A stretch of DNA of 54,869 nt from a virus (Duplodnaviria > Caudoviricetes): positions 1 to 54,869 of the IMG/VR virus record IMGVR_UViG_3300021371_000021, one strand, 5' to 3'. The first letter of the stretch is position 1, and the number at the start of each line of letters is the position of its first letter. Made by a program: the position numbers and the translations under genes. A model generated the notes under the pieces. It was not told the origin of the DNA, searched no databases, and worked only from the letters and a program-made list of their open reading frames with translations. Of the stretch, positions 7,101 through 45,251 are shown one piece after another.

Positions 7101-10100
7101 CCAAAGGTAAAAACTCTTGACGGCAAACCTAAGCCTTCTTTCTTACTTCCTGAGTCTATTCGAGCGCGGGTTATAGCAGAGAATAAAAAAGGTCTTTCTG
7201 CAACACAGAAAAAAAGGTTAGTAAGGTTTGAGGAAAAGTTTCTATTAGTAACTCCTGAGTACCAAGGGCCAAAGCTTGATAAGTCTGCTGAGTTAGATTT
7301 AGCTGATAACAACTTACGTTTTGCTATTCAAGAAGTTATTGATGCTCGTAAGAATCGTGGTGAGGATAAAAATGTAACTTCGCTCATAGAAAAAATAAAA
7401 TCGCTTACTGCTAAAACCAATGTAGCACTAGATGGCCCCACTATAAAAGCAAAAAATTTAGACCCGTTAAAGTTTGAATCTTTGGAAGTGCAGGCAGGAG
7501 TAGAAGGTAAAAGTTTAATTGAAGCTGCTCGATTTGCTGCTAACAACGCTCCTAACAAAGATTTACAGGTCTTGGCATCTGCTTTAGCAAATGAGCTTAA
7601 GCGGCAACAGGATAAAGGGATTTTATTTGATTTTAAAGTTTTGCACGTAGGTAATACAGTTCCTTCGTGGGCAGGTTCACTGACAAGAAACTCTAGGGGT
7701 ATTACTGGTATAACTGACACAACTGTATCTGTAGTGTTAAACGGAGCGGACGTAACAGGCAGAGTTGGCACTAGCTATAAAACCCTTGTGCATGAGTTAT
7801 TTCACGCAGCGACAATGGCTACCATACGTAATAAAAACAACAAAAACACCGCTCAACAAAATGCTGCTGTGCAAGACCTAACAAACCTTAGAGAATTTGT
7901 GCTAAGAAACTACTATACGAATAAAAATAAAAGAAACCTATCGGATATTGAAAAGCAGTTTGCGGAAGGCACTAACAATTTCTTTAAGAATAATGACGAA
8001 TTAGTCACTTGGGCTATGACAAGTCCAGAAGCGGCAGCTTATTTAGAATCCATACCATACGAACGAACAAACGTTTTTTCTGCTTTTGTGCGTATTATGC
8101 GCAAAATGATTGGTCTGCCTGAGTCCGCTGATGGGAACACTGCTTTATCTGAAGCAATACGTGTTACTGAAGTTTTATTAGGTAAGAACGCTGTAAACGC
8201 AGCTATGCGCAAAGTACAAAAAATAGAGGGTGCAGACTTAGCGGCTACTGAGCTACCTAATTTTGCTAGTGGTGCGTATATACCCGGACTAAATACAATA
8301 GTAATAAATACTGTTACAGGATTAAACGAGCATACCCTACTACATGAGTCTGCACACGCAGCTCTTGCTCAGATATTAGATAAGCCTAATCACCCGATTA
8401 CAAAAAAGTTTATGCAATTCTTTGCCGACGTAAAGCCAAAGGTTGGGGATGCTTACGGTGGTACAAACATACAAGAGTTTGCCGCTGAGTTTGTGAGCAA
8501 TGGAGAATTTCAAGCAATACTGCAAAGAATCAAAGCACCAAAAAGTGAAAACATGTTCGTCCGTATTCTTCAAACTATTCTTGAGGCATTCGGTATACGC
8601 AAATCACAAAGTGCTTACGACGTGACGTTAAAGTTTTTAGAAGAGCTGTTAGATGTATCTCAAGGAGTAGAGCCTACACTAGCGGATACCCTATACCTAA
8701 CTAATGAAAACATAGACGAAGTAATAGACGACACAATAAACGACTCTACAGATTCATTCGTAACCAGAAATACTGAGGCTGCGCTCGACACTGTGTCAAA
8801 GATACAAGACGACAAAGCTAGAGTGCTTGCATTAGGTGCTGCTAGCTTAGCTAACATGGATAACATGTACGGAGAAAATTCTCCTAGATACCGCAATAAT
8901 AATCCTTTGCCTATAGGCAGACTAATGTCCTTTATTGAAAGAAAACGTGGAGAAGTCAATAAGGCTATTGATAGGACTAGCAAAAACATTAGGATGATGA
9001 ACAAAGCGGAAAGAAAAGCTACTGCAGCTCAAAAACGAGAGTTTAATGATATTGCTATAGAGGCTCGTCTTGAAAGTGTAGATTTTTTAAAGCCTTTGCC
9101 AAAAAATGCTAGTGCTAAACAAGCGGCTGCGTACAAAAAACTAAACGTCAGATTTAATCGACTGCCTAAACCTATGCAAGCGTCGTATAAAACTTTACGT
9201 AAAGAACTGGACACGTACCTAGAAGAATACGTTGAGCTTATCACTGAGATACTGCCTGAAAGCTCAGCTAGAGAGCTAATGAAAAATTTTGTTAACTTAG
9301 AAGGTGTTGTTGCTTACGTACCTTTTGAACGCACTGGTGAGTATTACTATAGGTTTAAAGACCCTGCTAATTTAGATGCAAAGGGTAACCCAAAAGATAC
9401 GCCTGTAGCCGCAGAGTCTCCAAGAAAAAGAGATATAGCCGTAGCAGCGCTTAAAAAGAAATACGGACAAGATTTTGAAATTAAACAGTACGACAATATT
9501 GATACTATGGGTGTGCCAAAAGGACTACCTGAAGGGCAGTTTGTTACTAAGCTTGTAGGAGAGATGCGGAACAATAATATTGATAGCGCAATAATAGATC
9601 AAGTATATCAGCAGTACGTAGCTATGTTTCCAGAAAAGTCTATTATGCAACAGTTTAAAAAATCTAAAAACTTGCCCGGTATGGATAGAGATATTATCGG
9701 TGCATACTCTAACGTGTCTATTAAATGGGCTAACAAAATAGCGAACACCAGATACAATTCGCAAATTGAAACCGCGATGCAAGAGATAAGAAGGACAGCT
9801 AAAGAATATCACGGCGATAATAAATCCATGATGGCTGCCTCAAAAGCCCTAACAAAACAAGAAGCTTTCTTTTTGAACCCCACAGTAAACCCTATAGCTG
9901 CAGGACTTACTTTTGCTAGCTACTTTGAATACATTTTAGGTAGTTTATCTTCGGCTGTTGTTAACGTAACTGGCTTAGTCTTTATGGTAACACCCATGCT
10001 GGGTGCACGTACTACGTATCCTGAAGCTTTAGCTGCATTACAAGCGGGGGGAAGATTAGCCGCCGGTAAAGCTTGGCGTGACGGAAAACTAGATGGTCCG

Positions 10101-11405
10101 CTAAGCAAGTATAAAAACATGTACACTGAGTTGGATAATCGTGGACTACTCAAGCACACCGTAGCTAGGGAAGCATTGGAACGTGGTAAGACAAAAGGAA
10201 AAGATTTTGATGGTACGTTCTACAAAGCAGTAGAAATATTTTCCACGCCTTTCGCTGCAAGTGAGCGTTTTATGAGAGGAGCTACGGCTATTGCTGCTTA
10301 TGATTTAGCGATGAAAAACGGTATACCTTCTGAGGGGGTGGCTGCAAATAACGAACAGGCAGCTATAGACTTCGCAGCTAAAATGGTTAGGGATGCGCAC
10401 ACTGGCGGTATGGCAGAAACAATGCCACGGTGGATGCAAAATAGTTTTGGTCGTGTTGCGTGGACATTTAAGAACATAGTATTTCAACAAACCTACGTGG
10501 TAGCTACGTCGCTAAAGCAAGCTTTTATAGACTCTGATTTACCACCCGAAGTTAAACGTGCAGCGAGACGGCAGGTTGTAGGAACTTTCGGTCTAAGCTA
10601 CGCGCTACTTGGAGCAAAAGGATTACCTTTCTTTGGTGGTATAACTGTCCTTATGGATATGCTCAACTGGGTTTTTGGCGATGATGAAGAGCCTTACGAT
10701 GCAAGAGTAGAACTCCAAGAAATATTTGGGGATTACTTTTATACCGGCCTTATAGGGTCTGTAGCAAACATAAACATTAGTGAACGTGCAGCTTTAGGTA
10801 GAGATATATTTTATAGAGACGACCCCAAAAGTATTGAAGACTATGGACTTGTCCGTACAATTATGATGGGGCTAACTGGACCAATGGGGTCTTATTTAGT
10901 TGGTGCTGAAAAAGCTATTAGGGACGATCTACCTGCAGGTAGATACGCGTTTGCTGCTGAAGGGTTAACACCTACTTTTGTACGCAACGGCATAAAATCT
11001 TATCGTTATATGGTTGACGGGGCAAGAAATAGAGATGGTGATCCCATAGACACCGACATCAACGCATGGAACTTAATGACACAAGCAATAGGGTTTACCC
11101 CGGCGGACCTTTCAAACACTTATGAACAGCGTTCTTCTGCTAAAAACTTTGAGAATAAAGTACTTGCTAGAAAACAAAATATACTAAACAAGTATAAGAC
11201 CGCGAGAAAGCTAGGCAATAGATCGTTAGAAAGAGAAGCTGTAAAAGAAGCTTTAGCTTTTAGAAGACAGTTCCCTACGCTTATGGATGATACTACTTTA
11301 GAGCGTTCGTACAAAGCTAGTGTGCGTATAGATAGCGAAGACACGATAGCAGGTATTACATTTACTAAAGGTCTACGCTACAGAACAGATGAGTTCTTCG
11401 AGTAA
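4197..11405 (+). CDS. giant internal virion / polyvalent-type protein with two zincin metallopeptidase motifs
   Basis: 2402 aa; Gly/Ala-rich hydrophobic N-terminal segments, acidic linker, HELFH at 7791-7805 and HESAH at 8343-8357, helical C-terminal region; last gene of the + block. Confidence 0.7.
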   Translation: MPVVRMPNGDLVRFPNEMPKEQISQFIETKFPNAFDTPKPSVGDIFDASLTRGAENVASTLQDDLPAYLASIFGQDEYAAAQIEEGRARRQAAAEASPAQYGSYKDVESIGDAVGFVAEKFGENVPILGGLAASALTGAVAAPLLGVGAATGAGIASALGSYSLMAPESFAGIYEETGTFAPGAASIAGAVNSALELVAPAQVLRSFSPSMRSGVVNAVLKKSGMRPSIAANAVKGVVKGAATEGTTEGTQEAVNIAAEKFVAENPLIFDSEDFKRITESAVAGAAVGLPLGGVGGVGRGITDRGQFKKDQAEAEFEAELEARLAQTPEEEVTEETVEEVITSSEAKAKNNRVVPTDVKELKKWGMDNLGIGPTAAILKPDGPIAGKDLTDPQQNQEVIDAITVFRDKLPFDSTRRPKLDQALKYLEDNKTIIGEASSVEETVDEPVVVPEEKEQAAPTPNEVNKELEALETETETETEVEALRRKATGFQTEKDTTYEEDVAERNAVDAAERQRELEALQEAEEDIPQTKPLWSKDLLGFLSDNFAFTKEKFDEVQNLSEDEMQSYLDVIDEEYDNLKFDGPLVEDTSESIAESIAESIADDSTVDEPAPDGSNTLKDDADAKVVFDQLGIDEAGSFELSTAEFNARLKEANDRIKVIEEAAKKAKEPVTSKTKDGEFLTRKEGDILVDESAEQRPITKSPTAKKDTPKKFRVGQDKLFYNNKTLARPAAAELNAFKAANPRKEDASTGAEILANYLDAYDSPEAALAVIAAEVNPSYSENTGLVLTTTPEDAAKAKAYINKSMGKEAKQALANNENFIVETLADVQRRNAKVKEDEKARKVSKLGRDKKAEELKDVGAGTKGARAVAKEKKKLVGETPRQIAKRIDAEEKARRDEEAESLAGQKEGTTGTMGAEIRNAEKIARRTEETLAQKARSDEWIAFVESLPTKNQKAFLASYKKIADAIADPKVKTLDGKPKPSFLLPESIRARVIAENKKGLSATQKKRLVRFEEKFLLVTPEYQGPKLDKSAELDLADNNLRFAIQEVIDARKNRGEDKNVTSLIEKIKSLTAKTNVALDGPTIKAKNLDPLKFESLEVQAGVEGKSLIEAARFAANNAPNKDLQVLASALANELKRQQDKGILFDFKVLHVGNTVPSWAGSLTRNSRGITGITDTTVSVVLNGADVTGRVGTSYKTLVHELFHAATMATIRNKNNKNTAQQNAAVQDLTNLREFVLRNYYTNKNKRNLSDIEKQFAEGTNNFFKNNDELVTWAMTSPEAAAYLESIPYERTNVFSAFVRIMRKMIGLPESADGNTALSEAIRVTEVLLGKNAVNAAMRKVQKIEGADLAATELPNFASGAYIPGLNTIVINTVTGLNEHTLLHESAHAALAQILDKPNHPITKKFMQFFADVKPKVGDAYGGTNIQEFAAEFVSNGEFQAILQRIKAPKSENMFVRILQTILEAFGIRKSQSAYDVTLKFLEELLDVSQGVEPTLADTLYLTNENIDEVIDDTINDSTDSFVTRNTEAALDTVSKIQDDKARVLALGAASLANMDNMYGENSPRYRNNNPLPIGRLMSFIERKRGEVNKAIDRTSKNIRMMNKAERKATAAQKREFNDIAIEARLESVDFLKPLPKNASAKQAAAYKKLNVRFNRLPKPMQASYKTLRKELDTYLEEYVELITEILPESSARELMKNFVNLEGVVAYVPFERTGEYYYRFKDPANLDAKGNPKDTPVAAESPRKRDIAVAALKKKYGQDFEIKQYDNIDTMGVPKGLPEGQFVTKLVGEMRNNNIDSAIIDQVYQQYVAMFPEKSIMQQFKKSKNLPGMDRDIIGAYSNVSIKWANKIANTRYNSQIETAMQEIRRTAKEYHGDNKSMMAASKALTKQEAFFLNPTVNPIAAGLTFASYFEYILGSLSSAVVNVTGLVFMVTPMLGARTTYPEALAALQAGGRLAAGKAWRDGKLDGPLSKYKNMYTELDNRGLLKHTVAREALERGKTKGKDFDGTFYKAVEIFSTPFAASERFMRGATAIAAYDLAMKNGIPSEGVAANNEQAAIDFAAKMVRDAHTGGMAETMPRWMQNSFGRVAWTFKNIVFQQTYVVATSLKQAFIDSDLPPEVKRAARRQVVGTFGLSYALLGAKGLPFFGGITVLMDMLNWVFGDDEEPYDARVELQEIFGDYFYTGLIGSVANINISERAALGRDIFYRDDPKSIEDYGLVRTIMMGLTGPMGSYLVGAEKAIRDDLPAGRYAFAAEGLTPTFVRNGIKSYRYMVDGARNRDGDPIDTDINAWNLMTQAIGFTPADLSNTYEQRSSAKNFENKVLARKQNILNKYKTARKLGNRSLEREAVKEALAFRRQFPTLMDDTTLERSYKASVRIDSEDTIAGITFTKGLRYRTDEFFE
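5607..5633 (+). repeat. 6-bp tandem repeat (gaaaca)n encoding ETETETETE
   Basis: Read directly from the sequence. Confidence 0.9.
5962..6001 (+). repeat. 12-bp tandem repeat (ctgaatctatag x3) encoding ESIA x3
   Basis: Read directly from the sequence. Confidence 0.9.
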
Positions 11406-14474: not shown

Positions 14475-14708
14475 TTATTGCTCCAACTTAGCTATTATTT
14501 TTTGTATTTCTTCAGCTGCTGAAGGTTTAGGAATAGAAATACCCACAAACCAGTTATATACCGCTTGGCGACTAACGTTAAGTTTTTGTGCTACTTCGGT
14601 AACGGGCACATCGTTTTTAATGCACACCGCTCCGAAGTAAACGCCAAGAAGGTTTTTATCGGCAGCCTTATTTAGTTCTACAAATTTTAGGCTATATCCG
14701 TAACTCAT
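14475..14708 (-). CDS. Cro/XRE-like helix-turn-helix protein
   Basis: VTEVAQKLNVSRQAVYNWFVG; ATG at 14708 follows the upstream stop by 5 nt. Confidence 0.8.
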   Translation of the reverse strand: MSYGYSLKFVELNKAADKNLLGVYFGAVCIKNDVPVTEVAQKLNVSRQAVYNWFVGISIPKPSAAEEIQKIIAKLEQ

Positions 14709-14713
14709 TAGGC

Positions 14714-16021
14714 TTATTCGCTCCCCCACTCGTCAATAATAGAAGAAAGGTCTTCTCCGCTAGCTTGAGGTTCTTCTTTCTTTTTCTTGCGTTTCACTGG
14801 TTCCGCAGCCGGTTCTTCGTCGGCAAACGGATCAGGCTCAGGTGCACTCTGGATAGGTACAACATTTGACTCGAAACCATCGTTAGTATCTTCAGCAGTG
14901 AAAGGGCTATCGGAAGAGTTGCCCGCAACAAAGCCATCTTCTTCTGCTTCAAAAGGAGACTCTCGTGATACCTTCGGGGCTAACTTTTTGACCATTACTG
15001 CTTTAAGTCTTAGCGATATGCCGCCGGGACTATTTTGAGTCTTCTTGTAAGGCACGAACTCAACTTGTATATGCACTAAACTCTTGTGCGTCAGTTCAAA
15101 ATCCTTATCAAGTTTGTTGTTTTTTATATCGTATTGGTCAGGGACATCAGTTGGTCCACTTTCGTATGCGGCTTTTATCCTAGAAGTACCTTTATAAGTT
15201 CCTCCGTCTTGCTTTTTAAACGTCATTTTTAGGTCGTCATATTTAGCATATGCTTTATCCGTCTTACGTTTCTCGTCCCAAGCTGTTTTCATTAGGCCAT
15301 ATAGTTCTTTAGCTTGGTCTAGGTCCATTATAAAACCTAGTTCATAGGAAGCTCCGGGCGCATCTGAAGCGCAGGGTACACTGCGATTTTGCTCATCGCT
15401 CCACTTGTATGGTTGGTTTATGCGAGGCCAATCTGCAATTACATTCTTTATTACGTACGTCATATATTGCTCCTTAAAAGGGTTAAGTTCTGCAGCTTCG
15501 TTAAGCTGTTGTATGTTTGTAAGTTCTTCCTGTGTAAGAGGTCGAACGGGTTTGAAATATATCCTAGAAAGGTTTTCTACCTGTGAAAGATATATCTCTG
15601 TCAAAACAGTATGTAGCTGTTCTTTGTTGCTCTTAAGGTAATCCCTGTATTGGTACAGGGTCATCTTGTTAATTGACTTAGCAAACAAACTAGCTCCGCC
15701 AATACGCAAACTACATGCTGTTAATGAGTTCTCTTGTACTAAACTAATAGTTGTATAAAATTTACAGGGCTTACTTTTATACCCGGTTGCACCTTTGATG
15801 TTCTGCACACAATCAATACATCGGGCCGACTCTCTGTCTTCAAGCGGCACACTGGAGTCAGGGGTGTTGGAGTCCGAAGACCAGCACTTAAGCTTGCCTG
15901 AGTGGTCGTAGTAGTTCCTAGACAATAAACCTTCGTTCGTTATTACTGCTTCGACTGAGGTTCTAAGCTCACCTGTACTGGGGTCTATAAAGTGCCCGTC
16001 ATCGGTCCGTAGCCTGTTCAC
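14714..16021 (-). CDS. Cys-domain protein fused to a T7 gp2.5-like ssDNA-binding domain
   Basis: N-terminal CWS...CxxC...C; C-terminal WPRINQP...VEFVPY...GISLRLKAVMV and an acidic tail ending DEWGSE; GTGA overlap with the upstream gene; internal SD plus ATG at 15463. Confidence 0.6.
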   Translation of the reverse strand: MNRLRTDDGHFIDPSTGELRTSVEAVITNEGLLSRNYYDHSGKLKCWSSDSNTPDSSVPLEDRESARCIDCVQNIKGATGYKSKPCKFYTTISLVQENSLTACSLRIGGASLFAKSINKMTLYQYRDYLKSNKEQLHTVLTEIYLSQVENLSRIYFKPVRPLTQEELTNIQQLNEAAELNPFKEQYMTYVIKNVIADWPRINQPYKWSDEQNRSVPCASDAPGASYELGFIMDLDQAKELYGLMKTAWDEKRKTDKAYAKYDDLKMTFKKQDGGTYKGTSRIKAAYESGPTDVPDQYDIKNNKLDKDFELTHKSLVHIQVEFVPYKKTQNSPGGISLRLKAVMVKKLAPKVSRESPFEAEEDGFVAGNSSDSPFTAEDTNDGFESNVVPIQSAPEPDPFADEEPAAEPVKRKKKKEEPQASGEDLSSIIDEWGSE

Positions 16022-23584: not shown

Positions 23585-23612
23585 AAAAAAAAGCCCCGCA
23601 CAAGGCGAGGCT
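23585..23612 (-). terminator. rho-independent terminator ending the early operon
   Basis: Minus strand agcctcgc-cttgt-gcggggct followed by a T run. Confidence 0.85.
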
Positions 23613-23623
23613 AAAAGGGGTAG

Positions 23624-23645
23624 GAGTTTAGTTTAGACTAAACTG
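23624..23645. repeat. 22-bp palindrome, copy 1 (2 mismatches)
   Basis: gagtttagtttagactaaactg. Confidence 0.9.
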
Positions 23646-23659
23646 TTTCGGTTGGGTTA

Positions 23660-23803
23660 CTATTCTCTTATTCCCCCCTCATCCTGATCTGCAAGATACT
23701 CTTGGTATTGTATCTCAGCTTCGAGGGGGTCTACATAGTCATCTTCCTGCGTCATAAGATAACGGTTAAGGTCTACCATCACTGGGTCTTTATCTCTATT
23801 CAT
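23660..23803 (-). CDS. 47-aa acidic hypothetical protein (not in ORF track)
   Basis: MNRDKDPVMVDLNRYL...; SD gaggag; TGATG coupling. Confidence 0.6.
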   Translation of the reverse strand: MNRDKDPVMVDLNRYLMTQEDDYVDPLEAEIQYQEYLADQDEGGIRE

Positions 23804-24030
23804 CACTTGTTCTCCTCTATTGACCCAAAAATTTTAAGTTCCATTTCCATCCGCTTCGATTCGCGTAACGTCTGCGCGTAGTGATCGGCAATATCATCTT
23901 TATATGTTCGAGCAAGGGGTACTTCTTTTTTCCTCTCGTTCTCCCGCTCTTCAAGAATACCTTTTACCTCCGCTAGCAAACTTTTTAAATCTGCCGTTCT
24001 CCATGTGTTGTAATCCCAATCATCACTCAT
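23803..24030 (-). CDS. hypothetical protein
   Basis: SD aaggag upstream. Confidence 0.7.
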   Translation of the reverse strand: MSDDWDYNTWRTADLKSLLAEVKGILEERENERKKEVPLARTYKDDIADHYAQTLRESKRMEMELKIFGSIEENK

Positions 24031-24056
24031 CGCTTGTTCTCCTTATTGTTTGTGGG

Positions 24057-24920
24057 TTACCAGTCAAACTGACCAAGAATAGAGTCAACCTTAGACTTCA
24101 TGTTTTCACGGATAGCCGGTGAGTCTTTAATCACCTCGATGTCCGCACCTTCCATAGTTCGTTGTAGCATAACCCTAGCTCTATCTAGCTCTGGGTCATT
24201 GGTTACATTGAGATGCCCAAGGAAGTCACATAGTTCTTTCGGATTACTAACAAAGCTATCGTAGAATCTCTTGGGGGTATCATCTTCGTTCTCGGTCAAC
24301 TTACCGCTCATACTAGTAAGCGTAGTGTGCAACCTATCCCAAGCAGTGTTCATTGCGTTCTGAACCTTGCTTTTACTTTCTTCTTCTAGCTCTTGCCTCA
24401 AGTCATCTAAGTCTTGGGCAGGTAAGTCTACGTATGGGTGACCAGTCAGAGGAACCAGTTTAGTTTTCAACTCCCAAGAGTACTTAGCATAGACATCGTT
24501 TACATCTGGGTAGTCTGCTTCTTCAGCCATATCGCCTAGGTAGTTAGCTGAAATCTGCTTGAGCCGGTCATAGTGCTCACAGATGTAATCTCTGCGCCTA
24601 TAGAACTCACTGCTAAGCTTACCGTTCTTCTCACTAAAGTCAGTCTTGAAAGGAAGGTACAGGCTAGTAGAGATCAACCTGTCACCCATATCATCCCAAG
24701 GCAGAGTGCGAACCGAATACTCATTGCGACTTTTGTTGGCATACTTAGTTAGTTCACTTACGTAGTTAGAACCTACCATAAGGTCTTTGATAACCTTGCC
24801 TGCCTTCTTGTCTGCTCGTGCTCTCACAGTCAGATCGTCTGTCTGCTTCTTGTCTATCTTCTTAGCTGTCCATGTGGATATGCTAAGCCTTACTAACATT
24901 GCGCTACTTGAAATACTCAT
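24057..24920 (-). CDS. conserved phage protein, DUF3150-like
   Basis: MLVRLSISTW...TLPW...LNVTNDPEL pattern; SD aaggag; follows the AAA/vWA pair. The family call is tentative. Confidence 0.55.
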   Translation of the reverse strand: MSISSSAMLVRLSISTWTAKKIDKKQTDDLTVRARADKKAGKVIKDLMVGSNYVSELTKYANKSRNEYSVRTLPWDDMGDRLISTSLYLPFKTDFSEKNGKLSSEFYRRRDYICEHYDRLKQISANYLGDMAEEADYPDVNDVYAKYSWELKTKLVPLTGHPYVDLPAQDLDDLRQELEEESKSKVQNAMNTAWDRLHTTLTSMSGKLTENEDDTPKRFYDSFVSNPKELCDFLGHLNVTNDPELDRARVMLQRTMEGADIEVIKDSPAIRENMKSKVDSILGQFDW

Positions 24921-24946
24921 ACTGTTTCTCCTTAAAGGTTAAGTTT

Positions 24947-24968
24947 CAGTTTAGTCTGAACTAAACTG
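24947..24968. repeat. 22-bp palindrome, copy 2
   Basis: cagtttagtctgaactaaactg. Confidence 0.95.
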
Positions 24969-24982
24969 CATGGGTCTTACGG

Positions 24983-25231
24983 TTACTTTTCGGGTCTACC
25001 TGCTAGCTTACATACAGCGTACATAGCACTCGACATTGTTTTAGTCTCGCGTACTGAGTCCTCTGCATCACAGTCATACACATGATGCGTATAGAATGAC
25101 TCTCCACCATTATCGGAGCGCGACCATTTCTTCTGGTATCGTTCACAGTCATCCAGAATGTCATAGACAGCCTGCAGTTGCTCTGTTGACACCACATAGT
25201 GTTTGTCAGTTACCTCCAATATAAACTTCAT
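24983..25231 (-). CDS. hypothetical protein
   Basis: ATGA coupling to the vWA gene. Confidence 0.7.
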   Translation of the reverse strand: MKFILEVTDKHYVVSTEQLQAVYDILDDCERYQKKWSRSDNGGESFYTHHVYDCDAEDSVRETKTMSSAMYAVCKLAGRPEK

Positions 25232-26460
25232 ACTCTTCTCTCCAGTTGAATTGTTTTGCCCACCGGCGCGGTTATCTTACTGTGTGGGTTGTGTATGCCC
25301 CACAACACAGGGCAGTCCCACTTACCCCAACCCATCACTTCACCATCTGTCAGTACAACAGTGGCATCGGGTTTGATCTGCTTCTCACGTAAGTAGTCAG
25401 CAACACAGCTTGGGTCTGTACCTCCTCCACCATGAGGTTTAGTCAGAGTGCGCCAGTTCTTAAAGTTACTGCTTGTATACTCCTCGTGTGCACACACATC
25501 TCCATCCCAGTACATCAGGTGTATCTTGGCTATCTCTAGCTGTGTAGCCATACCCTCTACCTCTGACATACACACCTCAAAGGAATCATCGAAGAACATG
25601 GACCCAGACACATCGGGGGCAACGACCAGTTCTTTGATACACTGTCCCTTCATAATGGGCATCACCAGACCAGTGGTTACCCAGAACCTACGGTCGATGC
25701 GATCGTAAGAAGCATTGACGGGCTTACTACACGTCGCTCGTAGCCAGTGCTTCATCTGCTCGACCCAGTCGATCTTAGGTGCAAGCAGCCCACCAAGTGC
25801 TAGCGCACCCTCACCTTTGCCCTTGCCTGCTTTCTTTGCAGCCATAATACCTTGGCGTATAGCGGAGTTGACCTCTGCCTTGAGTGCTTCTTTCTCCTCG
25901 CTGGACATACCTTTAGCACCTTCCCAGTCATGGTCGTCCAGACCACCAGAGCCACCATCTCCATCGCCACCATCTCCATCGCCATCATCATCCTTATCTT
26001 TCTCGGCATAGATAATGTCAAAGATTTGTTTGATCGCCATACCCTTGAACCTTTCGTCAATAAGACCTACCGGATTACCTTCGGGGTCTTTGGGCATAGC
26101 GACAATCGTTTCCTGTGGGTCCGATGCTACTATGGTCTGGTTAATCCAATAGTCACAGGCTTGGTTCGCAGTACTGGCGCACAACCTATGTAGTTTCTCG
26201 TATATCTCAAGATGCCTACCGGCTTTGTGCCAATTCTCATGCAGGGTAATGAACCCTGCGCCTTTATCCCCCCACTGAAAGATAAAGTCAGGGTTGTACT
26301 TCTCGTCCCTACCGTTCGTACAGGCAGTAGGTACATCCCTTGTGAACTCTCGTGTGCCTGTCATCATGATGGGTCCAAGCTCAACGAACTTATCGCTCCT
26401 CATAATCTCAATGCGTTTACGTTTAAACCTACGTAGCTTTTGATCATCTGTTAGTTCCAT
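25228..26460 (-). CDS. metallopeptidase plus vWA domain protein (DUF2201-like)
   Basis: TACTNG, LHENWH (HExxH), Asp/Gly linker, MIDAS DVSGS...GGGGT...TDG. Confidence 0.85.
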   Translation of the reverse strand: MELTDDQKLRRFKRKRIEIMRSDKFVELGPIMMTGTREFTRDVPTACTNGRDEKYNPDFIFQWGDKGAGFITLHENWHKAGRHLEIYEKLHRLCASTANQACDYWINQTIVASDPQETIVAMPKDPEGNPVGLIDERFKGMAIKQIFDIIYAEKDKDDDGDGDGGDGDGGSGGLDDHDWEGAKGMSSEEKEALKAEVNSAIRQGIMAAKKAGKGKGEGALALGGLLAPKIDWVEQMKHWLRATCSKPVNASYDRIDRRFWVTTGLVMPIMKGQCIKELVVAPDVSGSMFFDDSFEVCMSEVEGMATQLEIAKIHLMYWDGDVCAHEEYTSSNFKNWRTLTKPHGGGGTDPSCVADYLREKQIKPDATVVLTDGEVMGWGKWDCPVLWGIHNPHSKITAPVGKTIQLERRV

Positions 26461-26469
26461 ACGGTTCTC

Positions 26470-27570
26470 CTATAGTAAGTCTTGGTTACGTTCAGCCCAC
26501 TCTGCGAACGCTCGTGAGGTAAAGGCTAGCCTACGCTTAGCATCAGTAGAGTTAGGACCGGCTAGACTCACACCAAAGATCACTTGAAACTCCTCGGTAT
26601 CATAGTCTGCATCGTCCCTGCTTATGTACGTCATGAACGAATCCAAATCTTCCTTGTCCTTGATATGCTCCAGTGCACTGAACGTCAGTACTGCACAAGC
26701 CCCTGCATTCGGGGGCAGTGGGGCTGTCGTTGGGTTAGCTTTGATCTCGCTCCAAGGAGTCATAGACTCATGATGCTGTATGAAATGCGTGATTGAATTA
26801 GCCGCTGATGCACCTACGGTACCAACCAGAGCCGCCTTCAACGCATTGGCTGAGTAGCCATGGCGCGTCTTGACCAAGTTACTTGCAAGCTCCAGTGTCC
26901 TTGGCGTTACCACTGAACCCTGTCCCACAACGTCAGGGTCAAAAATATAGGGGTTGTTTTTCTGTCCGCTGTCTCGGTAAGAAGCCAAGCAGTCAGAGTT
27001 TCTACTCACCCATGCCATGATGATTGGTTCAATGTCGTTGTCAGCCGCCCACACCAACCACTCGTCACTATCTGGTTTACATATCTCAACAAACGAGACG
27101 CGCATTTTACTGTGGGCTTTGAGACTGTCGCCAACCCCATCGCTTTCGAGGTTACCTGTCATGAACACAATGCTACCTTCGGGTAATGGTAGGTCACCCA
27201 GTCGGGGGTCTTTGACTTCCAACAGTGGGTGCAATGTATTCTTCACCTCATCAGAACCTTTGGTGAACTCATCAAGGCATATGATGACCGGCTTACCCTC
27301 GTGCAGTCTGAATCTTGCGTTGGGGTAGTACTGTAGCGTCTTGGTCTGCATATCAGGTATCGGTATAGCACCATCGCCTATGCCCATGTTGGGTACATCA
27401 ATGATTGCATATGGGTAACCAGTTCTACGTGACAGCTCTGCCACAATGCTTGTCTTACCAACGCCCGGCTCACCTGCCAGATAGAATTTGTTACTGGGGT
27501 TACACGCTAGCATTGCCGGTGCTTCCACCAAAGTTACTGTGACACGATCTTCTAGTTTTACATTTTCCAT
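26470..27570 (-). CDS. MoxR-like AAA+ ATPase
   Basis: Walker A GEPGVGKT, Walker B ICLDE, TGN and TPR motifs. Confidence 0.9.
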   Translation of the reverse strand: MENVKLEDRVTVTLVEAPAMLACNPSNKFYLAGEPGVGKTSIVAELSRRTGYPYAIIDVPNMGIGDGAIPIPDMQTKTLQYYPNARFRLHEGKPVIICLDEFTKGSDEVKNTLHPLLEVKDPRLGDLPLPEGSIVFMTGNLESDGVGDSLKAHSKMRVSFVEICKPDSDEWLVWAADNDIEPIIMAWVSRNSDCLASYRDSGQKNNPYIFDPDVVGQGSVVTPRTLELASNLVKTRHGYSANALKAALVGTVGASAANSITHFIQHHESMTPWSEIKANPTTAPLPPNAGACAVLTFSALEHIKDKEDLDSFMTYISRDDADYDTEEFQVIFGVSLAGPNSTDAKRRLAFTSRAFAEWAERNQDLL

Positions 27571-27599
27571 ACTGTACTCCGTTAAGTTTAATTTATGTA

Positions 27600-28676
27600 T
27601 TACAGTTTAGTCTGGACTAAACTGTATGTTGCCCCATAACTGTTTACTGGTTTCTGTGGCAGAGGTATATTCAAATACTTCTGGTTAGGGTTGGGCTTAA
27701 CTTCACCCACTGGTAGTACGACCTCGCTGAGGATGGCATTGGAATACCCTCGCTTCAAAATATCATCTATCGTCTGGTGTATATGTTTGGGGTTGTAGTG
27801 AAACATAGCCTCCCTGTGCACAGTGGACCACGCCTTAGACATCGTCAAAGTAGCGCAGATGTCTAGCATGTCTGCCCAGTCCTCGATAACGTCACTCCGC
27901 ATTATGTTGCAGAAGGTAGACACTGTGTCTGGGTCGGGGAACGAACTCCTGTTTATGTTATACCTAGAGCGGTGAGGGTCGGTATGCTCCCTTACGTGCT
28001 TGTCTATTATCTTGCTGTTGTATTCGTAACCGCTTACCTGAGTATCCGCAGGATAAGCCACCTTCACCATAGCTTTTGCGTACTTCAAGAAAGGTTGGTT
28101 GAGTCTGCGTACCTCATTCATAGCCTTGCGGTTAATCCTATGAACAATCGCTCTCTCAGGTGTTATGGGTAGCCTGTCTTTACCTAGCACTATACTGCTT
28201 TCCCATAAGTGTTTACTGGTTTCCTTGTCAGACATACCTTCTCTAGTCTGGTAGTTCTGGTCAAAGGTTGAATACACACCTGCTCTCGTACTGGGCAGGT
28301 CATATATAGACACACCGCTGTTGTATAGTCCTTTAGGGGCTTCGGCTACACCACCAAAGGGTTGGATGATTGTGTTAATAAACGTTCTGGTGCTTAGTGT
28401 CATATAATCTTCAGCAGAAAGTCTAACTGTTCCATCTGAGTAGAAGTTCACACAGTCTGTCCCGTACAACCTGCATCGTATAACGTCTACCTCTTGACCT
28501 GACTGGTGGGTCTTACCTTTGCGTATAGTCATATGGGTTAGCCGTCTTTCACCCAATGGTCTTTTGCCTGCGTTTTTACCGTTACCTCGGATGGGTACAA
28601 CCCCACGCCAATGTCTCTCAGCCTGTTCGTAATCACGCAATGCCGGTAAACTATCTGTCTTCACATAATATCCCAT
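27600..28676 (-). CDS. early hypothetical protein
   Basis: PIRG...PLGERR...CRLYGTD pattern; ATG at 28676 has SD aaggag. Confidence 0.75.
   Translation of the reverse strand: MGYYVKTDSLPALRDYEQAERHWRGVVPIRGNGKNAGKRPLGERRLTHMTIRKGKTHQSGQEVDVIRCRLYGTDCVNFYSDGTVRLSAEDYMTLSTRTFINTIIQPFGGVAEAPKGLYNSGVSIYDLPSTRAGVYSTFDQNYQTREGMSDKETSKHLWESSIVLGKDRLPITPERAIVHRINRKAMNEVRRLNQPFLKYAKAMVKVAYPADTQVSGYEYNSKIIDKHVREHTDPHRSRYNINRSSFPDPDTVSTFCNIMRSDVIEDWADMLDICATLTMSKAWSTVHREAMFHYNPKHIHQTIDDILKRGYSNAILSEVVLPVGEVKPNPNQKYLNIPLPQKPVNSYGATYSLVQTKL
27603..27624. repeat. 22-bp palindrome, copy 3 (dyad extends over 27601-27626; overlaps the last codons of the CDS)
   Basis: tacagtttagtctggactaaactgta. Confidence 0.95.
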
Positions 28677-28677
28677 A

Positions 28678-28842
28678 CTATTTCTCCTTGTCGTTTGATT
28701 GAATCTCAAGCCATTGCTTAAGATGTTTAGGGTCGTGCTTTGCTAATTCGTCACGTAGTTCTCTCTTGCGGTTAGCCTCCTCTGCTAGTTTGTCGTTACG
28801 CTTGATACGTAGAGCTACCATAGCGTCGATAAAGTTACTCAT
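28678..28842 (-). CDS. hypothetical protein
   Basis: ATG at 28842 with SD gaggag and ATGA coupling. Confidence 0.65.
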   Translation of the reverse strand: MSNFIDAMVALRIKRNDKLAEEANRKRELRDELAKHDPKHLKQWLEIQSNDKEK

Positions 28843-29042
28843 ACGTGTTGCTCCTCTTCTGGCTTCAAAAAGTCCTGTAACAATTTTGGATCTGCACTCC
28901 ACAGCAACCCTGCAATGGCAGTCCAGTCGTTTGTATCGTATCTCGTCATCTCATCACTTGCGTCACGATAAATCTGTTCTACAACTGCGTTCACCAACCT
29001 TTTATGTGCAATAACATTTACGAAGTTAGAGTTACTCATCAT
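28839..29042 (-). CDS. hypothetical protein
   Basis: SD aggag upstream. Confidence 0.65.
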   Translation of the reverse strand: MMSNSNFVNVIAHKRLVNAVVEQIYRDASDEMTRYDTNDWTAIAGLLWSADPKLLQDFLKPEEEQHV

Positions 29043-29244
29043 CGTTCTCCTGATTTAATTTATGTGCTAAGTACGCACCTATAGTTAGTAGCTCGTCCTC
29101 GTTCATATCTAATACCTCAGCGATTGCATCAGATGCTACCACCAGACCTATCCTTGCTATCTCTTCAATAACCAACGAATCAATATCATTGTTAACAGCC
29201 CATTGAGTCCAAGCATCAGTTACTCGCATTTCTTTACTCATCAT
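29032..29244 (-). CDS. hypothetical protein
   Basis: SD aggag before ATG at 29244. Confidence 0.65.
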   Translation of the reverse strand: MMSKEMRVTDAWTQWAVNNDIDSLVIEEIARIGLVVASDAIAEVLDMNEDELLTIGAYLAHKLNQENDDE

Positions 29245-29251
29245 CGTTCTC

Positions 29252-29416
29252 CTATAGAAATACAATTACAGTTAACAACCATACAAACGTAACAACTGCG
29301 ATACCGGCAACACCTACACCAACAGCTAGCAGTGGCTTTACCCACCGCGACGTTCGCGCCCATCGGTACATGTCATGCGGGTCGTGCGTGTTGTATCTGT
29401 CTTTGAAGTCTTTCAT
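29252..29416 (-). CDS. 54-aa predicted membrane protein (not in ORF track)
   Basis: MKDFKDRYNTHDPHDMYRWARTSRWVKPLLAVGVGVAGIAVVTFVWLLTVIVFL; SD ggagg. Confidence 0.7.
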   Translation of the reverse strand: MKDFKDRYNTHDPHDMYRWARTSRWVKPLLAVGVGVAGIAVVTFVWLLTVIVFL

Positions 29417-29436
29417 TAGCCTTCCTCCGTAGGTTG

Positions 29437-29458
29437 CAGTTTAGTCTGGACTAAACTG
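29437..29458. repeat. 22-bp palindrome, copy 4
   Basis: cagtttagtctggactaaactg. Confidence 0.95.
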
Positions 29459-29467
29459 GTTTGGGTG

Positions 29468-29677
29468 TTACCGTTCATAACGCTTGGGATTGATTTGCTT
29501 CACGACATCCAAAGCATCGCTGTTAGTGAACGCCATGTAGCCTTGTTTATGCAGGGGGATAACAGTGTGCTTGTGTTGTCTAGCTACTGCCTCTCCGCAT
29601 TGCAAGCAGGATTGATAGCCTAGGTCTGCTCTAGCAGTGGGGAAGGGGGCATCGCAATAGATACACAGGTTTGTCAT
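29468..29677 (-). CDS. small CxxC...CxxC zinc-finger protein
   Basis: CIYC...RADLGYQSCLQCG; SD ggag. Confidence 0.75.
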   Translation of the reverse strand: MTNLCIYCDAPFPTARADLGYQSCLQCGEAVARQHKHTVIPLHKQGYMAFTNSDALDVVKQINPKRYER

Positions 29678-29705
29678 ACTGTTAGCTCCATGAATAAAAG
29701 GTTAC

Positions 29706-29727
29706 CAGTTTAGTCCAGACTAAACTG
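29706..29727. repeat. 22-bp palindrome, copy 5
   Basis: cagtttagtccagactaaactg (reverse complement of copies 3 and 4). Confidence 0.95.
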
Positions 29728-29766
29728 CTGTCTGAAAGTGAGACGAATTCCCACCAAACAGTATAT

Positions 29767-29795
29767 ATTATATCACGGCTACTATACAATGTCAA
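29767..29795 (-). promoter_or_regulatory. consensus sigma70 promoter TTGACA-17-TATAAT
   Basis: Minus strand ttgacattgtatagtagccgtgatataat, with an A/T-rich tract upstream. Confidence 0.9.
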
Positions 29796-29858
29796 GTGGT
29801 AACGCTCCAAATAAAAAATTAAATTCTGTGCGCTGGGGTAAACATTAACAGTTTGCAA

Positions 29859-30183
29859 TGTTACAAAATGGGGCTTTGTTACATTTGTAAAACAGGTTTG
29901 TAACAATAAACGTAACAATAGAAACGCCCGTAAATACTGGGCTGTGTTACAAAGTTACCTGTATTGTTATAATGTTACATAAAATAATATATATATATAG
30001 GACTCTTGAACTTTGTAACACTGCTAGGACTTTTGCTTTGTTACAAGCTCACTCTATCTAGTATCCCCATACGTTACTTTTAAGACGTAACATTGTAACA
30101 ATACAAGCATTGTTATATATATCATAGGTTTACTTAGCCAAGCTAATGTTACACCTTAGACAAACACTTACATAAACGTAACA
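29859..30183. repeat. GTAACA/TGTTAC iteron array around a (TA)n tract; candidate replication origin
   Basis: 12 exact hexamers in both orientations within 325 bp of non-coding AT-rich DNA. Confidence 0.75.
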
Positions 30184-30323
30184 ATAGGTAGCTAGCTCGT
30201 AAGCTACTATCATAAGAACTACTATCATCTCACGATTGAGATGATATATAAGTAGAGTAGTTAGGGTGGGTGAGTTTGTCAGAAGGGGGGAGGAAGGGGG
30301 GAGGGGAGTAGAAACTCGAGGCG

Positions 30324-30347
30324 AAAAAAAACCGCCCGAAGGCGGTT
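30324..30347 (-). terminator. rho-independent terminator with UUCG loop
   Basis: Minus strand aaccgcc-ttcg-ggcggtt followed by a T run. Confidence 0.9.
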
Positions 30348-30358
30348 TGGTAAGAGAT

Positions 30359-30374
30359 GCGCCCCGAAGGGCGC
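30359..30374 (-). other. C(UUCG)G hairpin just after the stop codon
   Basis: Minus strand gcgccc-ttcg-gggcgc. Confidence 0.8.
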
Positions 30375-30381
30375 GTGAAGG

Positions 30382-31092
30382 TTAAACAAGGGCTGTGAGT
30401 AATTCCGCGACAGTCATTTTTCTCGGCGCGTCGATAAGCTTGCTTCTCTCGATTCGCTCGATCGCGGTTAGCAATGCCATGCGCAACGGTTCGGCTCGCT
30501 TGTCTCTCGATAGATCGGAAAGCTCCTCTTTGATTTCCGTGAGCTTTGATTTGAAAATACCTCGGCAGGTTTCCAAAGCATCGACCTTACCCTGAGCTTC
30601 TTTTTCGGAAGCTTTGTCTTCATTGGCTTTGGCTAAGGCTAGCTCGGCTTTGGCAATTTTTAAGTCGTTAACAACGGCTTTCTGCTCTTCGATGTACTCT
30701 ATCTTTTCTTGTTTGAGTTTATCAACCCGCAATTCCGATTCGGTTTTCTCTTTCGGTTCGACCGGCTCAGGTTTTTTGAGAGTCTTCCCAAAGTAGGCGT
30801 GCTGATAAGCTTGCCAACAAGAAGCGTACTTTGTGTTTACTGCTTGGATAATCGCGGCTAGCTCCTCGGCTTTCTCAAGTGACAGCCCGCATTTATCCGC
30901 GGCTTTCTGCTTTGTTTCTAGCTTGGTGTCCTCTCGGAATGCATTACAGCTGAGTCCGCCGTTAGCCGTCGTGTTGACAGCGTCCTCACCATAGCGATCG
31001 GCTAGCGTTTTCATTACCTCGGCTAATGCCAGCGTTTTGTTCTCATACGTTTCTATTATTATCTTAATCATTTCAGTAGTGAATTTATTCAT
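30382..31092 (-). CDS. monocistronic early coiled-coil protein of unknown function
   Basis: 236 aa, with its own consensus promoter and terminator. Confidence 0.75.
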   Translation of the reverse strand: MNKFTTEMIKIIIETYENKTLALAEVMKTLADRYGEDAVNTTANGGLSCNAFREDTKLETKQKAADKCGLSLEKAEELAAIIQAVNTKYASCWQAYQHAYFGKTLKKPEPVEPKEKTESELRVDKLKQEKIEYIEEQKAVVNDLKIAKAELALAKANEDKASEKEAQGKVDALETCRGIFKSKLTEIKEELSDLSRDKRAEPLRMALLTAIERIERSKLIDAPRKMTVAELLTALV

Positions 31093-31102
31093 AAGCTTGT
31101 AT

Positions 31103-31124
31103 CAGTTTAGTCTAGACTAAACTG
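31103..31124. repeat. 22-bp palindrome, copy 6 (perfect)
   Basis: cagtttagtctagactaaactg equals its own reverse complement. Confidence 0.97.
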
Positions 31125-31163
31125 CGTTCTCCTTTTAAGGTTATGTGGAAGTCCCACGCTTCC

Positions 31164-36604: not shown

Positions 36605-36802
36605 ATGGCTAAAACCGTCTTTGACGTGCTAACAGATAAACTTACAGACCATAAACGGTCTAGCGAAGAATTTGTACGGTCCGGTGCAGCTAAAGACTAC
36701 GCCGCGTATAAAGAAGTGTGTGGTGTGCTTCGGGGTCTGGACACCGCGCTACGTGAAATAAATGACCTCTCGCGTAACTATATGGAAGAAACCGATGACT
36801 GA
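36605..36802 (+). CDS. hypothetical protein (portal-GroES interval)
   Basis: SD gaggt; DYAAYKEVCG..RGL motif. Confidence 0.75.
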   Translation: MAKTVFDVLTDKLTDHKRSSEEFVRSGAAKDYAAYKEVCGVLRGLDTALREINDLSRNYMEETDD

Positions 36803-37202
36803 ACCAACAGCTCTTGAGAAGAAGCGACAAGAAAAGATAGACGAGATGAAAATATCCGAGGAAGACATGGATGCTTACATCCCTAAACCTGTAGGTTACC
36901 GGGTGCTTGTAGCACTCCCAAACGTAGAGGAGACGTACTCTAGCGGTATTATCAAAGCTGCTAAGACAGTGCACGAAGAGTACATTCTTTCTACTATTGG
37001 AGCTGTAGTGGATATGGGCGACGAGGCTTACAGCGATAAAGAACGATTCACAAACGGACCGTGGTGTAAGGTTGGGGACTATGTAATGTTCCGAGCTAAC
37101 ACTGGAACACGGTTTAAACTAGGCAACCAAGAGTATCGTCTGATGAACGATGATTCTATTGAAGCGGTTGTCGCCAATCCGAGAGCCATCACTCGTGCGT
37201 GA
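36795..37202 (+). CDS. groES: GroES-like co-chaperonin
   Basis: PVGYRVLV, SGII, KVGDYVMF and LMNDDSIEAVV motifs. Confidence 0.85.
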   Translation: MTEPTALEKKRQEKIDEMKISEEDMDAYIPKPVGYRVLVALPNVEETYSSGIIKAAKTVHEEYILSTIGAVVDMGDEAYSDKERFTNGPWCKVGDYVMFRANTGTRFKLGNQEYRLMNDDSIEAVVANPRAITRA

Positions 37203-44618: not shown

Positions 44619-45251
44619 GTGAATTACACCGAGCTTAAAGCAAACATACAGGATGTATGCGAACAGACGTTTACGGACGACCAGTTGGCTATGTTTACTG
44701 AGCAAGCAGAGCAACTTATTTTTTCTACTGTTGACCTTCCTGCGTTACGTGCGAACCAGACGGGTAATATAACCGGCGGTAATCAGTATCTCACGATGCC
44801 TACAGGCATGTTGTATGTGTATTCTTTAGCGGTTATTGATCCTACTAGTGCGGAGTATCACTATTTAATTAACAAAGACCCTAGCTTTATACGAGAAGCT
44901 TACCCTGTTGCAGCTACACAAGGGCGACCACAGCACTATGGTATCTTTAGTCAGACTAGTTTTATCGTAGGGCCAACGCCTAATGTTACGTATGTTGCCG
45001 AGTTGCATTATGGTAAATACCCTACCAGCATTGTTACTGCTGGAACTACGTGGTTAGGCGATCAGTTTGATTCTGCGCTATTAAATGGGGCTTTAGTTCA
45101 AGCAATACGATTTCAGAAGGGTGAAGCTGATATGGTAGCGTTGTATGAAAAAATGTATATCGACGCTTTGACGTTGTTGAAAAACTTAGGTGATGGCAAA
45201 TTAGAAACCGACGCTTATCGTAACGGCGTTGTTCGCGTACCAGTAAGATAG
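44619..45251 (+). CDS. putative tail tubular protein A / adaptor
   Basis: MNYTELK...GRPQHY...VGPTP...TWL...LLNGAL. Confidence 0.65.
   Translation: MNYTELKANIQDVCEQTFTDDQLAMFTEQAEQLIFSTVDLPALRANQTGNITGGNQYLTMPTGMLYVYSLAVIDPTSAEYHYLINKDPSFIREAYPVAATQGRPQHYGIFSQTSFIVGPTPNVTYVAELHYGKYPTSIVTAGTTWLGDQFDSALLNGALVQAIRFQKGEADMVALYEKMYIDALTLLKNLGDGKLETDAYRNGVVRVPVR

Follow-up and report, generated by a model that had tools for sequence, protein, structure and literature searches.

A repeated palindrome of the early operon differs from phage to phage and covaries with the first early gene in a family of uncultivated phages

We analyzed the whole of IMG/VR record IMGVR_UViG_3300021371_000021 (54,869 nucleotides [nt]; linear; Duplodnaviria, Caudoviricetes; estimated 88% complete), hereafter the window, in which a 22-bp palindrome is repeated among the early genes. 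The palindromes form a dedicated cis-element system of the early segment, and this arrangement holds throughout a family of related phages, in which the palindrome sequence differs from one phage to the next and changes with the first early gene, here called X. We propose, with moderate confidence, that the palindromes are operators on duplex DNA at which X shuts off or insulates early transcription.

Scanning the 54.9-kb record with the pattern CAGTTTAGT-N4-ACTAAACTG, allowing up to 3 mismatches, returned exactly six matches, at 23624, 24947, 27603, 29437, 29706 and 31103, whereas 100 shuffles that preserved dinucleotides averaged 0.09 matches and never exceeded 1. Since the window is the entire record, the assembled genome has no copies beyond these six. 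The coordinates coincide with those given by an earlier sequence-only reading of this DNA, and the scan likewise reproduced the central tetranucleotides it had listed (plus strand, copies 1 to 6: TTAG, CTGA, CTGG, CTGG, CCAG, and CTAG), the single deviating base (the first base of copy 1, at 23624, is G, the arms being otherwise invariant in all six copies) and the absence of any full copy elsewhere in the genome. The bare half-site AGTTTAGT occurs just three further times in the window. Bacterial genomes totaling 596 Gb contained the pattern 16 times, each time singly and never in multiple copies, compared with about 9 occurrences calculated by chance; therefore, the palindrome is not a host repeat family. 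Four viral contigs with one exact copy each were not counted as relatives. The whole-genome scan, which the sequence-only reading had suggested, thus found the copies confined to the early operon, with no spread over the genome or over bacterial chromosomes.

All six copies are intergenic, with early genes of the minus strand around them. Copies 6 and 5 stand in the leaders that follow the consensus sigma-70 promoters P1 and P2, respectively; three others separate cistrons, and the last immediately precedes the operon terminator. The maps of genes, promoters and terminators therefore agree with the earlier statements that the copies stand at gene junctions between the first early promoter and the terminator and that only two of them are near a promoter. 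With regard to intrinsic-terminator character, no minus-strand copy in the window is followed by a T-run, and the terminator scan flagged the copy at 31103 alone, on the plus (antisense) strand and with just 3 G-C pairs.

The window ATPase has many metagenomic relatives, and an alignment-based scan of viral metagenomic loci for this protein provided 80 loci, or 81 with the window. When a palindrome family was defined as at least 3 copies per locus and searched for de novo, 52 of the 81 loci, but none of 81 shuffled loci, contained a repeated palindrome family of their own; the loci are akin to one another, and the copy counts are not independent events. At orthologous junctions, the palindrome sequence differs from phage to phage. 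The commonest type is (C)CTAACA-N-TGTTAG(G), and other types include CCTCACA, TGTAACA, AACCTACA, ACCTAGAA, GCGTACGG-N3, AGATATCT-N2-AGATATCT, and CCCTAACG-CGTTAGGG, while locus L029 has the same AGTTTAGT arms as the window. Inside a single phage, the arms are invariant and the center is variable (e.g., 6/6 copies in the window, 10/10 in L076, and 9/9 in L087), so that selection must act on the sequence as such and not on pairing alone. The spacing between the arms is fixed in 44 of the 52 loci. An Rfam search found no relevant family for the palindromes.

The same architecture recurs across the family, with copies in early-promoter leaders, in intercistronic gaps, and at the flanks of terminators. 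Among 84 terminators, a copy was located 0 to 41 nt upstream in 30, 2 to 60 nt downstream of the T-tract in 27, and on both sides in 4. Perfect copies were intergenic in 220 of 255 cases, although the region is 78% coding, and 302 of 313 copies lay upstream of the VRR-NUC gene. In complete relative G005 (63 kb), all 18 copies fell within 8.9 to 18.8 kb, and in complete relative G006, 10 of 12 copies fell within 12.1 to 19.7 kb; a third, G007, gave zero matches to the scanned pattern because its sites have another spacing. The de novo discovery that had been proposed for related phages thus revealed a separate sequence in each phage at the same operon, and the notion first put forward for the window, a system of cis-elements dedicated to the early segment, extends to the whole phage family (52/81 loci).

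In the gene maps, X opens the region, with palindromes on its flanks and a terminator behind it. A gene is always present at this place, yet its family switches when the palindrome does; the X region is missing from 14 loci. Cluster c10 supplied X in 30 of 30 TAAC/TCAC-type loci in which X was called, c79 in 3 loci with AACCTACA and AACCTAGAAT sites, and c160 in 2 loci, the window and L029, with AGTTTAGT sites; single-locus clusters were c820 with GCGTACGG, c330 with AGATATCT, and c310 with TCTAGGCAC. In hhalign comparisons, c79 was a remote branch of c10 (95.7%), and no relation was detected between c160 and c10, nor between c160 and the X proteins of L076 and L096. The c160-c79 comparison scored 1.6%, though KCG[LM]S motifs were paired in the alignment.

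Covariation was also evident within c10. Sameness of the site between c10 loci was predicted by X identity with an area under the curve (AUC) of 0.83 to 0.88, compared with 0.47 to 0.75 for 7 other shared genes. Mantel tests (29 loci, 5,000 permutations) yielded a rho of -0.62 for palindrome versus X (P = 0.0002), which became -0.59 in the partial test on the ATPase (P = 0.0002), while the ATPase signal given X was 0.06 (P = 0.72). On the X tree, the site class changed 11 times (the minimum possible is 10, and 300 shuffles always required at least 13), whereas 13 changes were needed on the ATPase tree, where shuffles reached down to 11. Furthermore, a metagenome scan with window-type X identified 17 loci, of which 15 carried AGTTTAG..CTAAACT sites, the remaining two being short contigs; one locus, L112, seems to represent the L029 contig again. 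By AUC, Mantel tests and tree, the gene that covaries with the palindrome is X. The sequence-only reading had named two candidate partners, of which X stood, while the helix-turn-helix (HTH) gene at 14475-14729 is 44 to 51% identical in 5/5 complete relatives, whatever their palindrome type. In L093, L062, L049, and L108, two c10 X genes are present, each flanked by palindromes of its own and equipped with a separate terminator.

Searches of Pfam and PHROG placed X in no family, and its relatives among 1.84 billion proteins amounted to only 29 cluster representatives, none with a family. The AlphaFold model of X is confident (predicted local distance difference test [pLDDT] score, 89.5) and comprises a helical N-domain (residues 1-101), a linker, an antiparallel helical hairpin (118-217, formed by 118-156 and 160-217), and a short C-terminal helix. 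In 16/16 aligned family members, all of which have the same half-site, it is the N-domain that is conserved, while the hairpin region diverges; modeled alone, the N-domain gave a pLDDT of 86.6 and a predicted template modeling score (pTM) of 0.82. Judging from the secondary structure of the model, in which helix 58-67 is joined by a 4-residue turn to helix 72-88, a helix-turn-helix is possible, and the modeled hairpin could mediate oligomerization. An HTH-like signature spotted by eye was discarded, as no search supported it. Fold searches with the whole model matched the helical hairpin alone (Z 10 to 12, ordinary for long helices), and profile searches against solved structures returned nothing for the N-domains and coiled-coil-type matches for the C-terminal half only. 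A protein-atlas search found no usable match for window X; for c10 it returned the cluster's own viral clusters, together with weak leads to DUF3102 (0.83) and a Streptomyces phage repressor family (0.81), of a kind often due to chance. In the alignment of 33 c10 X proteins, a single Trp is invariant and two further residues are nearly so; this sole invariant residue argues against X being an enzyme.

Two readings have to be weighed for how the palindromes are recognized. Instead of an operator on DNA, each copy could be an mRNA element, a hairpin before the ribosome-binding site to which X or another phage factor binds and thereby tunes or represses translation, or protects or processes the transcript; we regard this as possible, if doubtful. 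Of 201 mismatched arm pairs on the mRNA strand, 29 were G.T and 44 were A.C (P = 0.10), so that G.U pairs are not preferred there, and 165 of the mismatches were at the outermost base. The central base on the mRNA strand was A in 173 copies versus T in 154 (P = 0.32) and G in 11 versus C in 7, that is, the center prefers A/T and is strand symmetric, and the asymmetric centers CAAA and TTTG were both found in both orientations. Throughout, it is the stem sequence that is always conserved and the loop that never is. In L110, whose X is 76% identical to window X, 5/5 copies (1729, 3555, 3847, 6018, and 8660) have a 5-nt center between the same 9-bp arms at orthologous junctions, while L109 (X 88% identical) retains the 4-nt center of the window, and such a concerted N4-to-N5 shift is unexpected for a free loop. 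Folded as RNA, 480 copies had a median hairpin energy of -5.4 kcal/mol and 28% were weaker than -3 kcal/mol; for the 18 copies of L064 the median was only -2.7 kcal/mol. In addition, the copies found 2 to 60 nt past the T-tract at 27 of 84 terminators argue against an RNA target because the terminated RNA stops short of them, and open reading frames (ORFs) hold 35 of the 255 perfect copies and 95 of the 199 copies with one mismatch. Given no G.U bias, a symmetric A/T center, spacing that is constant in one phage yet changes in step between phages, weak RNA stability of many copies, and copies past terminators, we favor a symmetric protein that recognizes duplex DNA over a reader of an RNA hairpin.

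Several observations weigh against operators bound by X, and a number of them would be expected of an mRNA element. The 77 promoter matches reduced to 59 distinct contexts with a palindrome no more than 120 nt away, in which the copies begin 26 to 79 nt past the -10 element and never overlap -35, -10, or +1; the exact offset of 40 nt shared by both window promoters is not conserved in the family. Intergenic copies tend to stand just upstream of ribosome-binding sites, 196 of 324 having a Shine-Dalgarno (SD) sequence and start codon within 80 nt (median, 12 nt). The window copies are all transcribed and, with their 9-bp stem, would fold at -8.4 kcal/mol each (-6.4 kcal/mol for copy 1). One-base variation in spacing occurs in 8 of the 52 loci, the window among them through an alternative register of copy 1. 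X is not basic (net charge, -2) and has neither a Pfam or PHROG match nor a recognizable DNA-binding fold: a fold search with the N-domain found no clear neighbor (best Z, 5.3; Foldseek E of at least 2), homeodomain entries appearing only at a Foldseek E of about 3. The covariation of X with its site is correlative, the loci being mutually related, and it fits a hairpin-binding X equally well.

The leader of X itself bears on the same question. The order GGAG-N4-palindrome-N10-ATG is present in the window (31093-31140) and in L109, L110, L111, L119, and L123, and this GGAG is the sole SD-like motif in window-type X leaders. The arrangement suggests a hairpin uniting SD and AUG, and formation of the RNA hairpin would make it easier to explain, which counts against operators on DNA; translation of X may need the hairpin to join the two.

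For the operators that we prefer, a course of events can be outlined. X would be produced at once from its own consensus promoter P1, and the site in its own leader would make it autoregulated, so that X limits itself. As it accumulates, X would occupy the sites past each early promoter, between cistrons, and beside terminators, where host RNA polymerase traversing the early operon would be blocked or insulated by the bound protein. We infer that X acts as a dimer and that its effect is repression or a roadblock; the result would be a symmetric version of the mycobacteriophage stoperators in an apparently lytic phage. Among the three explanations offered by the sequence-only reading, binding of a dimeric phage protein is the best supported, as X covaries with the site, but the suggestion that it controls genome entry found no support.

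A second explanation from the same source, that the palindromes are recombination joints, short identical boundary sequences permitting exchange of early cassettes, we consider very unlikely. Homology between the window and L109, L110, or L029 does break within about 15 nt of some copies (29422-29428, 23653, and 31104), and relatives vary in gene content between copies. However, further breakpoints are away from copies (28837-29238, 30324-30339, and 27492), and homology would break in intergenic DNA anyway, so that the support is weak and confounded. Exchange of cassettes leaves the variable center with constant arms, the uniform spacing, and the tracking by X without explanation, and palindromes that differ between two relatives could not serve them as sites of recombination.

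The remaining one of the three, structural mRNA stem-loops that serve host enzymes as RNase III-type processing sites or stabilizers with no phage-specific reader, is highly improbable. Its appeal lies in topology: as in T7, the elements punctuate a polycistronic early transcript after promoters and between cistrons, and the window hairpins are moderately stable. The early RNase III sites of T7 are long (~20-bp), irregular hairpins of differing sequence, with conserved structure, cut by a host enzyme, and RNase III substrates need about two helical turns. The sites of the window family, in contrast, are short, with stems of at most 9 bp, and agree in sequence throughout a phage; the arms do not merely complement each other but are identical, no compensatory change was seen in any phage, and arm mismatches do not preserve pairing. 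These properties, together with the symmetric center, the weak hairpins, and the copies past terminators, disfavor this explanation; moreover, no Rfam family was matched, and a host enzyme would leave the covariation of the site with a phage gene unexplained. Lastly, mobile palindromes resembling repetitive extragenic palindromes (REP) or miniature inverted-repeat transposable elements (MITE), spread by an element-encoded enzyme that would be X, would fit the many identical copies, the varying copy number at orthologous junctions, and the link to one gene, but are hardly credible in view of the c10 alignment, which offers no plausible catalytic set, the lack of target-site duplications or flanking repeats in the copies inspected, the absence of multicopy occurrences in the bacterial genomes, and the restriction of copies to one operon.

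Lambda Cro/CI resembles what we propose for X, since a first early product acts there on six pseudo-palindromic early sites and lowers early transcription, that of its own gene included. The palindromes share with Cro/CI-type sites dyad symmetry, invariant arms (6/6), fixed spacing (44/52 loci), and a concerted change of spacing from N4 to N5 (L110). Cro and CI are classical HTH dimers, and their OR and OL operators overlap promoters, whereas the sites of the window family are located 26 to 79 nt past the -10 element, between cistrons, and beside terminators.

In its logic, the proposed system comes nearest to the stoperators and immunity repressor of Cluster A mycobacteriophages such as L5 and Bxb1. 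For these, repressor distance has been related to stoperator motif distance, with up to ~30 sites (PMC6550527), and the sites are reported to stop elongation (PMC9283540). In both systems a single short site recurs many times, chiefly in small gaps between genes of transcribed regions, and is read by one phage protein (known there, proposed here), and in both the site motif and the protein diverge together between phages. Stoperators are, however, asymmetric, oriented with transcription, bound by a monomer, distributed genome-wide, and used for prophage immunity, while the sites of the window family are dyad symmetric without orientation bias and confined to the early operon; in the window phage no integrase or CI-type gene was found, and the partner protein has no recognizable family or fold.

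In sequence form, the closest look-alike is a repeat of Cluster O mycobacteriophages, TGTTCGG-N3-CCGAACA, for which PMC4351075 reports tens of copies, many of them intergenic, with no meaningful orientation, no lysogeny, and no known function. It has invariant inverted arms and a variable A/T-rich center like the window palindrome, but its copies are genome-wide, about one-third are coding, and no partner is proposed, whereas the window-family copies belong to one operon and a covarying gene has been identified. The 22-bp repeat of T1/Stevie is described in PMC4319613 as a repeated short motif of unknown role; both it and the window palindromes are short repeated motifs in lytic or poorly understood phages, but it is asymmetric and oriented, and they are symmetric.

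The closest cultured relatives of the window phage are distant, with the DNA polymerase 35% identical to that of Rhizobium phage RHph_TM3_14A (L126; MN988472.1). This phage carries GTTACC-N6-GGTAAC 38 times (up to 1 mismatch; 0 in the backwards-read control) over its whole 60.9-kb genome, in contrast to the confinement of the window-family palindrome to the early operon, and hhalign detected no similarity of its first early gene to c160 or c10, the two X families compared. Pseudomonas phage KPP25 had no repeated palindrome. A megablast search of the region against cultured phages gave no match, and no published description of the clade or of the palindrome system was found in the literature searched.

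Every gene from 31092 down to 11555 is on the minus strand, and two transcription units carry the palindromes (Table 1). In minus-strand order, the first consists of P1, a palindrome, X, and a terminator. The second begins with P2, a palindrome, the DksA-like zinc-finger gene, and another palindrome, proceeds through small ORFs, g1, and a palindrome to the genes for the MoxR-like ATPase and the DUF2201/VWA protein, and ends with a small ORF, a palindrome, g3, small ORFs, a last palindrome, and the terminator.

Table 1. Palindrome copies, gene X, and transcription signals of the early region of the window, in minus-strand order
Feature	Positions	Strand	Description
Promoter P1	31164-31192	-	TTGACA-17-TATAAT with TG; 12/12, extended -10; drives X
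Palindrome copy 6	31103-31124		CAGTTTAGT-CTAG-ACTAAACTG; leader of X, 40 nt past -10 of P1; AAGGAG on one side, ATG of X on the other
Gene X	30382-31092	-	First early gene, 236 aa, orphan; proposed partner of the palindrome
Terminator after X	30329-30348	-	Intrinsic; terminator scan
Promoter P2	29767-29795	-	TTGACA-17-TATAAT with TG; 12/12, extended -10; drives main early operon
Palindrome copy 5	29706-29727		P2 leader, 40 nt past -10; upstream of DksA-like zinc-finger gene 29468-29677
Early operon body	23660-29677	-	DksA-like zinc-finger protein, small ORFs, g1, MoxR-like ATPase, DUF2201/VWA protein, g3, small ORFs
Palindrome copy 4	29437-29458		Intercistronic, 29468-29677 / 29252-29416
Palindrome copy 3	27603-27624		Intercistronic, g1 (listed TTG ORF 27600-28709; ATG form ends nearby) / MoxR-like ATPase gene 26470-27570
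Palindrome copy 2	24947-24968		Intercistronic, 24983-25231 / 24057-24920
Palindrome copy 1	23624-23645		Terminal base mismatched; on the minus strand, 11 nt ahead of the operon-end terminator
Operon-end terminator	23592-23612	-	Intrinsic; followed by P3
Promoter P3	23540-23568	-	Sigma-70-like, 11/12; followed by VRR-NUC and DNA polymerase module

Family searches among the window genes found no integrase or CI-type repressor gene, and the structural genes include an SU10-type adaptor; the window phage is thus probably a lytic podophage. A Cpn10 (GroES)-like gene sits within the structural module; this gene and the adaptor are at 36762-37202 and 44619-45251. At 4197-11405, the window encodes a protein of 2402 aa, the C-terminal third of which has matches among DarB-like and ejection-protein PHROGs. 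The idea that the palindromes are N4-type hairpin promoters was dropped, as this protein matches DarB-like/ejection families and not a virion RNA polymerase.

Other elements were observed nearby. In the noncoding stretch between the X terminator and P2, 9 of the 12 TGTAACA heptamers of the window fall within 295 bp (29859-30153), in both orientations and around an AT-rich tract, the genome-wide count being at chance level; at the same position in L029 (1668-2107), 13 of 44 GTAAC motifs lie within 440 bp. The heptamer, one base off the CTAACA half-site of c10-type relatives, could mark a replication origin or an array of sites for a second regulator. The same stretch contains a different perfect palindrome, TATCATCTCA-ATCG-TGAGATGATA (30223-30246), which is conserved in L109 and L110; downstream of it these two loci have a TAACAATGCTTGTATTGTTA palindrome, and the same sequence is readable there in the window minus strand. 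Past the early -10 elements, a short stem-loop with GGGA (e.g., GTGGGACTTCCAC and GTGGGAATTCGTCTCAC) was seen on the minus strand of the window at ~31145-31160 (P1) and ~29738-29754 (P2) and in the leaders of L029-L108. GGGA occurred within 25 nt in 40 of 110 distinct leaders versus 5 of 110 control segments, and its stem sequences vary between phages with pairing kept. This element could be a 5' stabilizer or nut/boxB-like.

Taken together, the data point to an undescribed regulator-and-binding-site system in which the palindrome changes with the first early gene. It is conceivable, though we think it unlikely, that the fast-evolving orphan X, with its unrecognized fold, and its cognate palindromes at almost all boundaries of the early operon constitute a specificity system of the immunity-group type in a large clade of 55- to 63-kb uncultivated, apparently lytic aquatic phages, probably driven by competition between relatives during coinfection. 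In that event, X made by a resident phage would silence the early operon of any same-type phage that enters, so that superinfection would be excluded without lysogeny, and protein and sites would have changed specificity on many occasions, some of which replaced the protein by one without detectable similarity. No member of the clade has been cultured. The covariation table directly predicts which X should bind which site. If the proposal is true, the family would offer a compact orthogonal toolbox of at least five protein/site specificities, with symmetric sites of 15 to 22 bp in one conserved operon architecture and a recognition domain that matches no known fold. Stoperator-like regulation from many sites would then not be peculiar to temperate actinophages but would occur in abundant uncultivated aquatic phages, where the X-palindrome system would set the switch from early to middle expression and perhaps exclusion between relatives.

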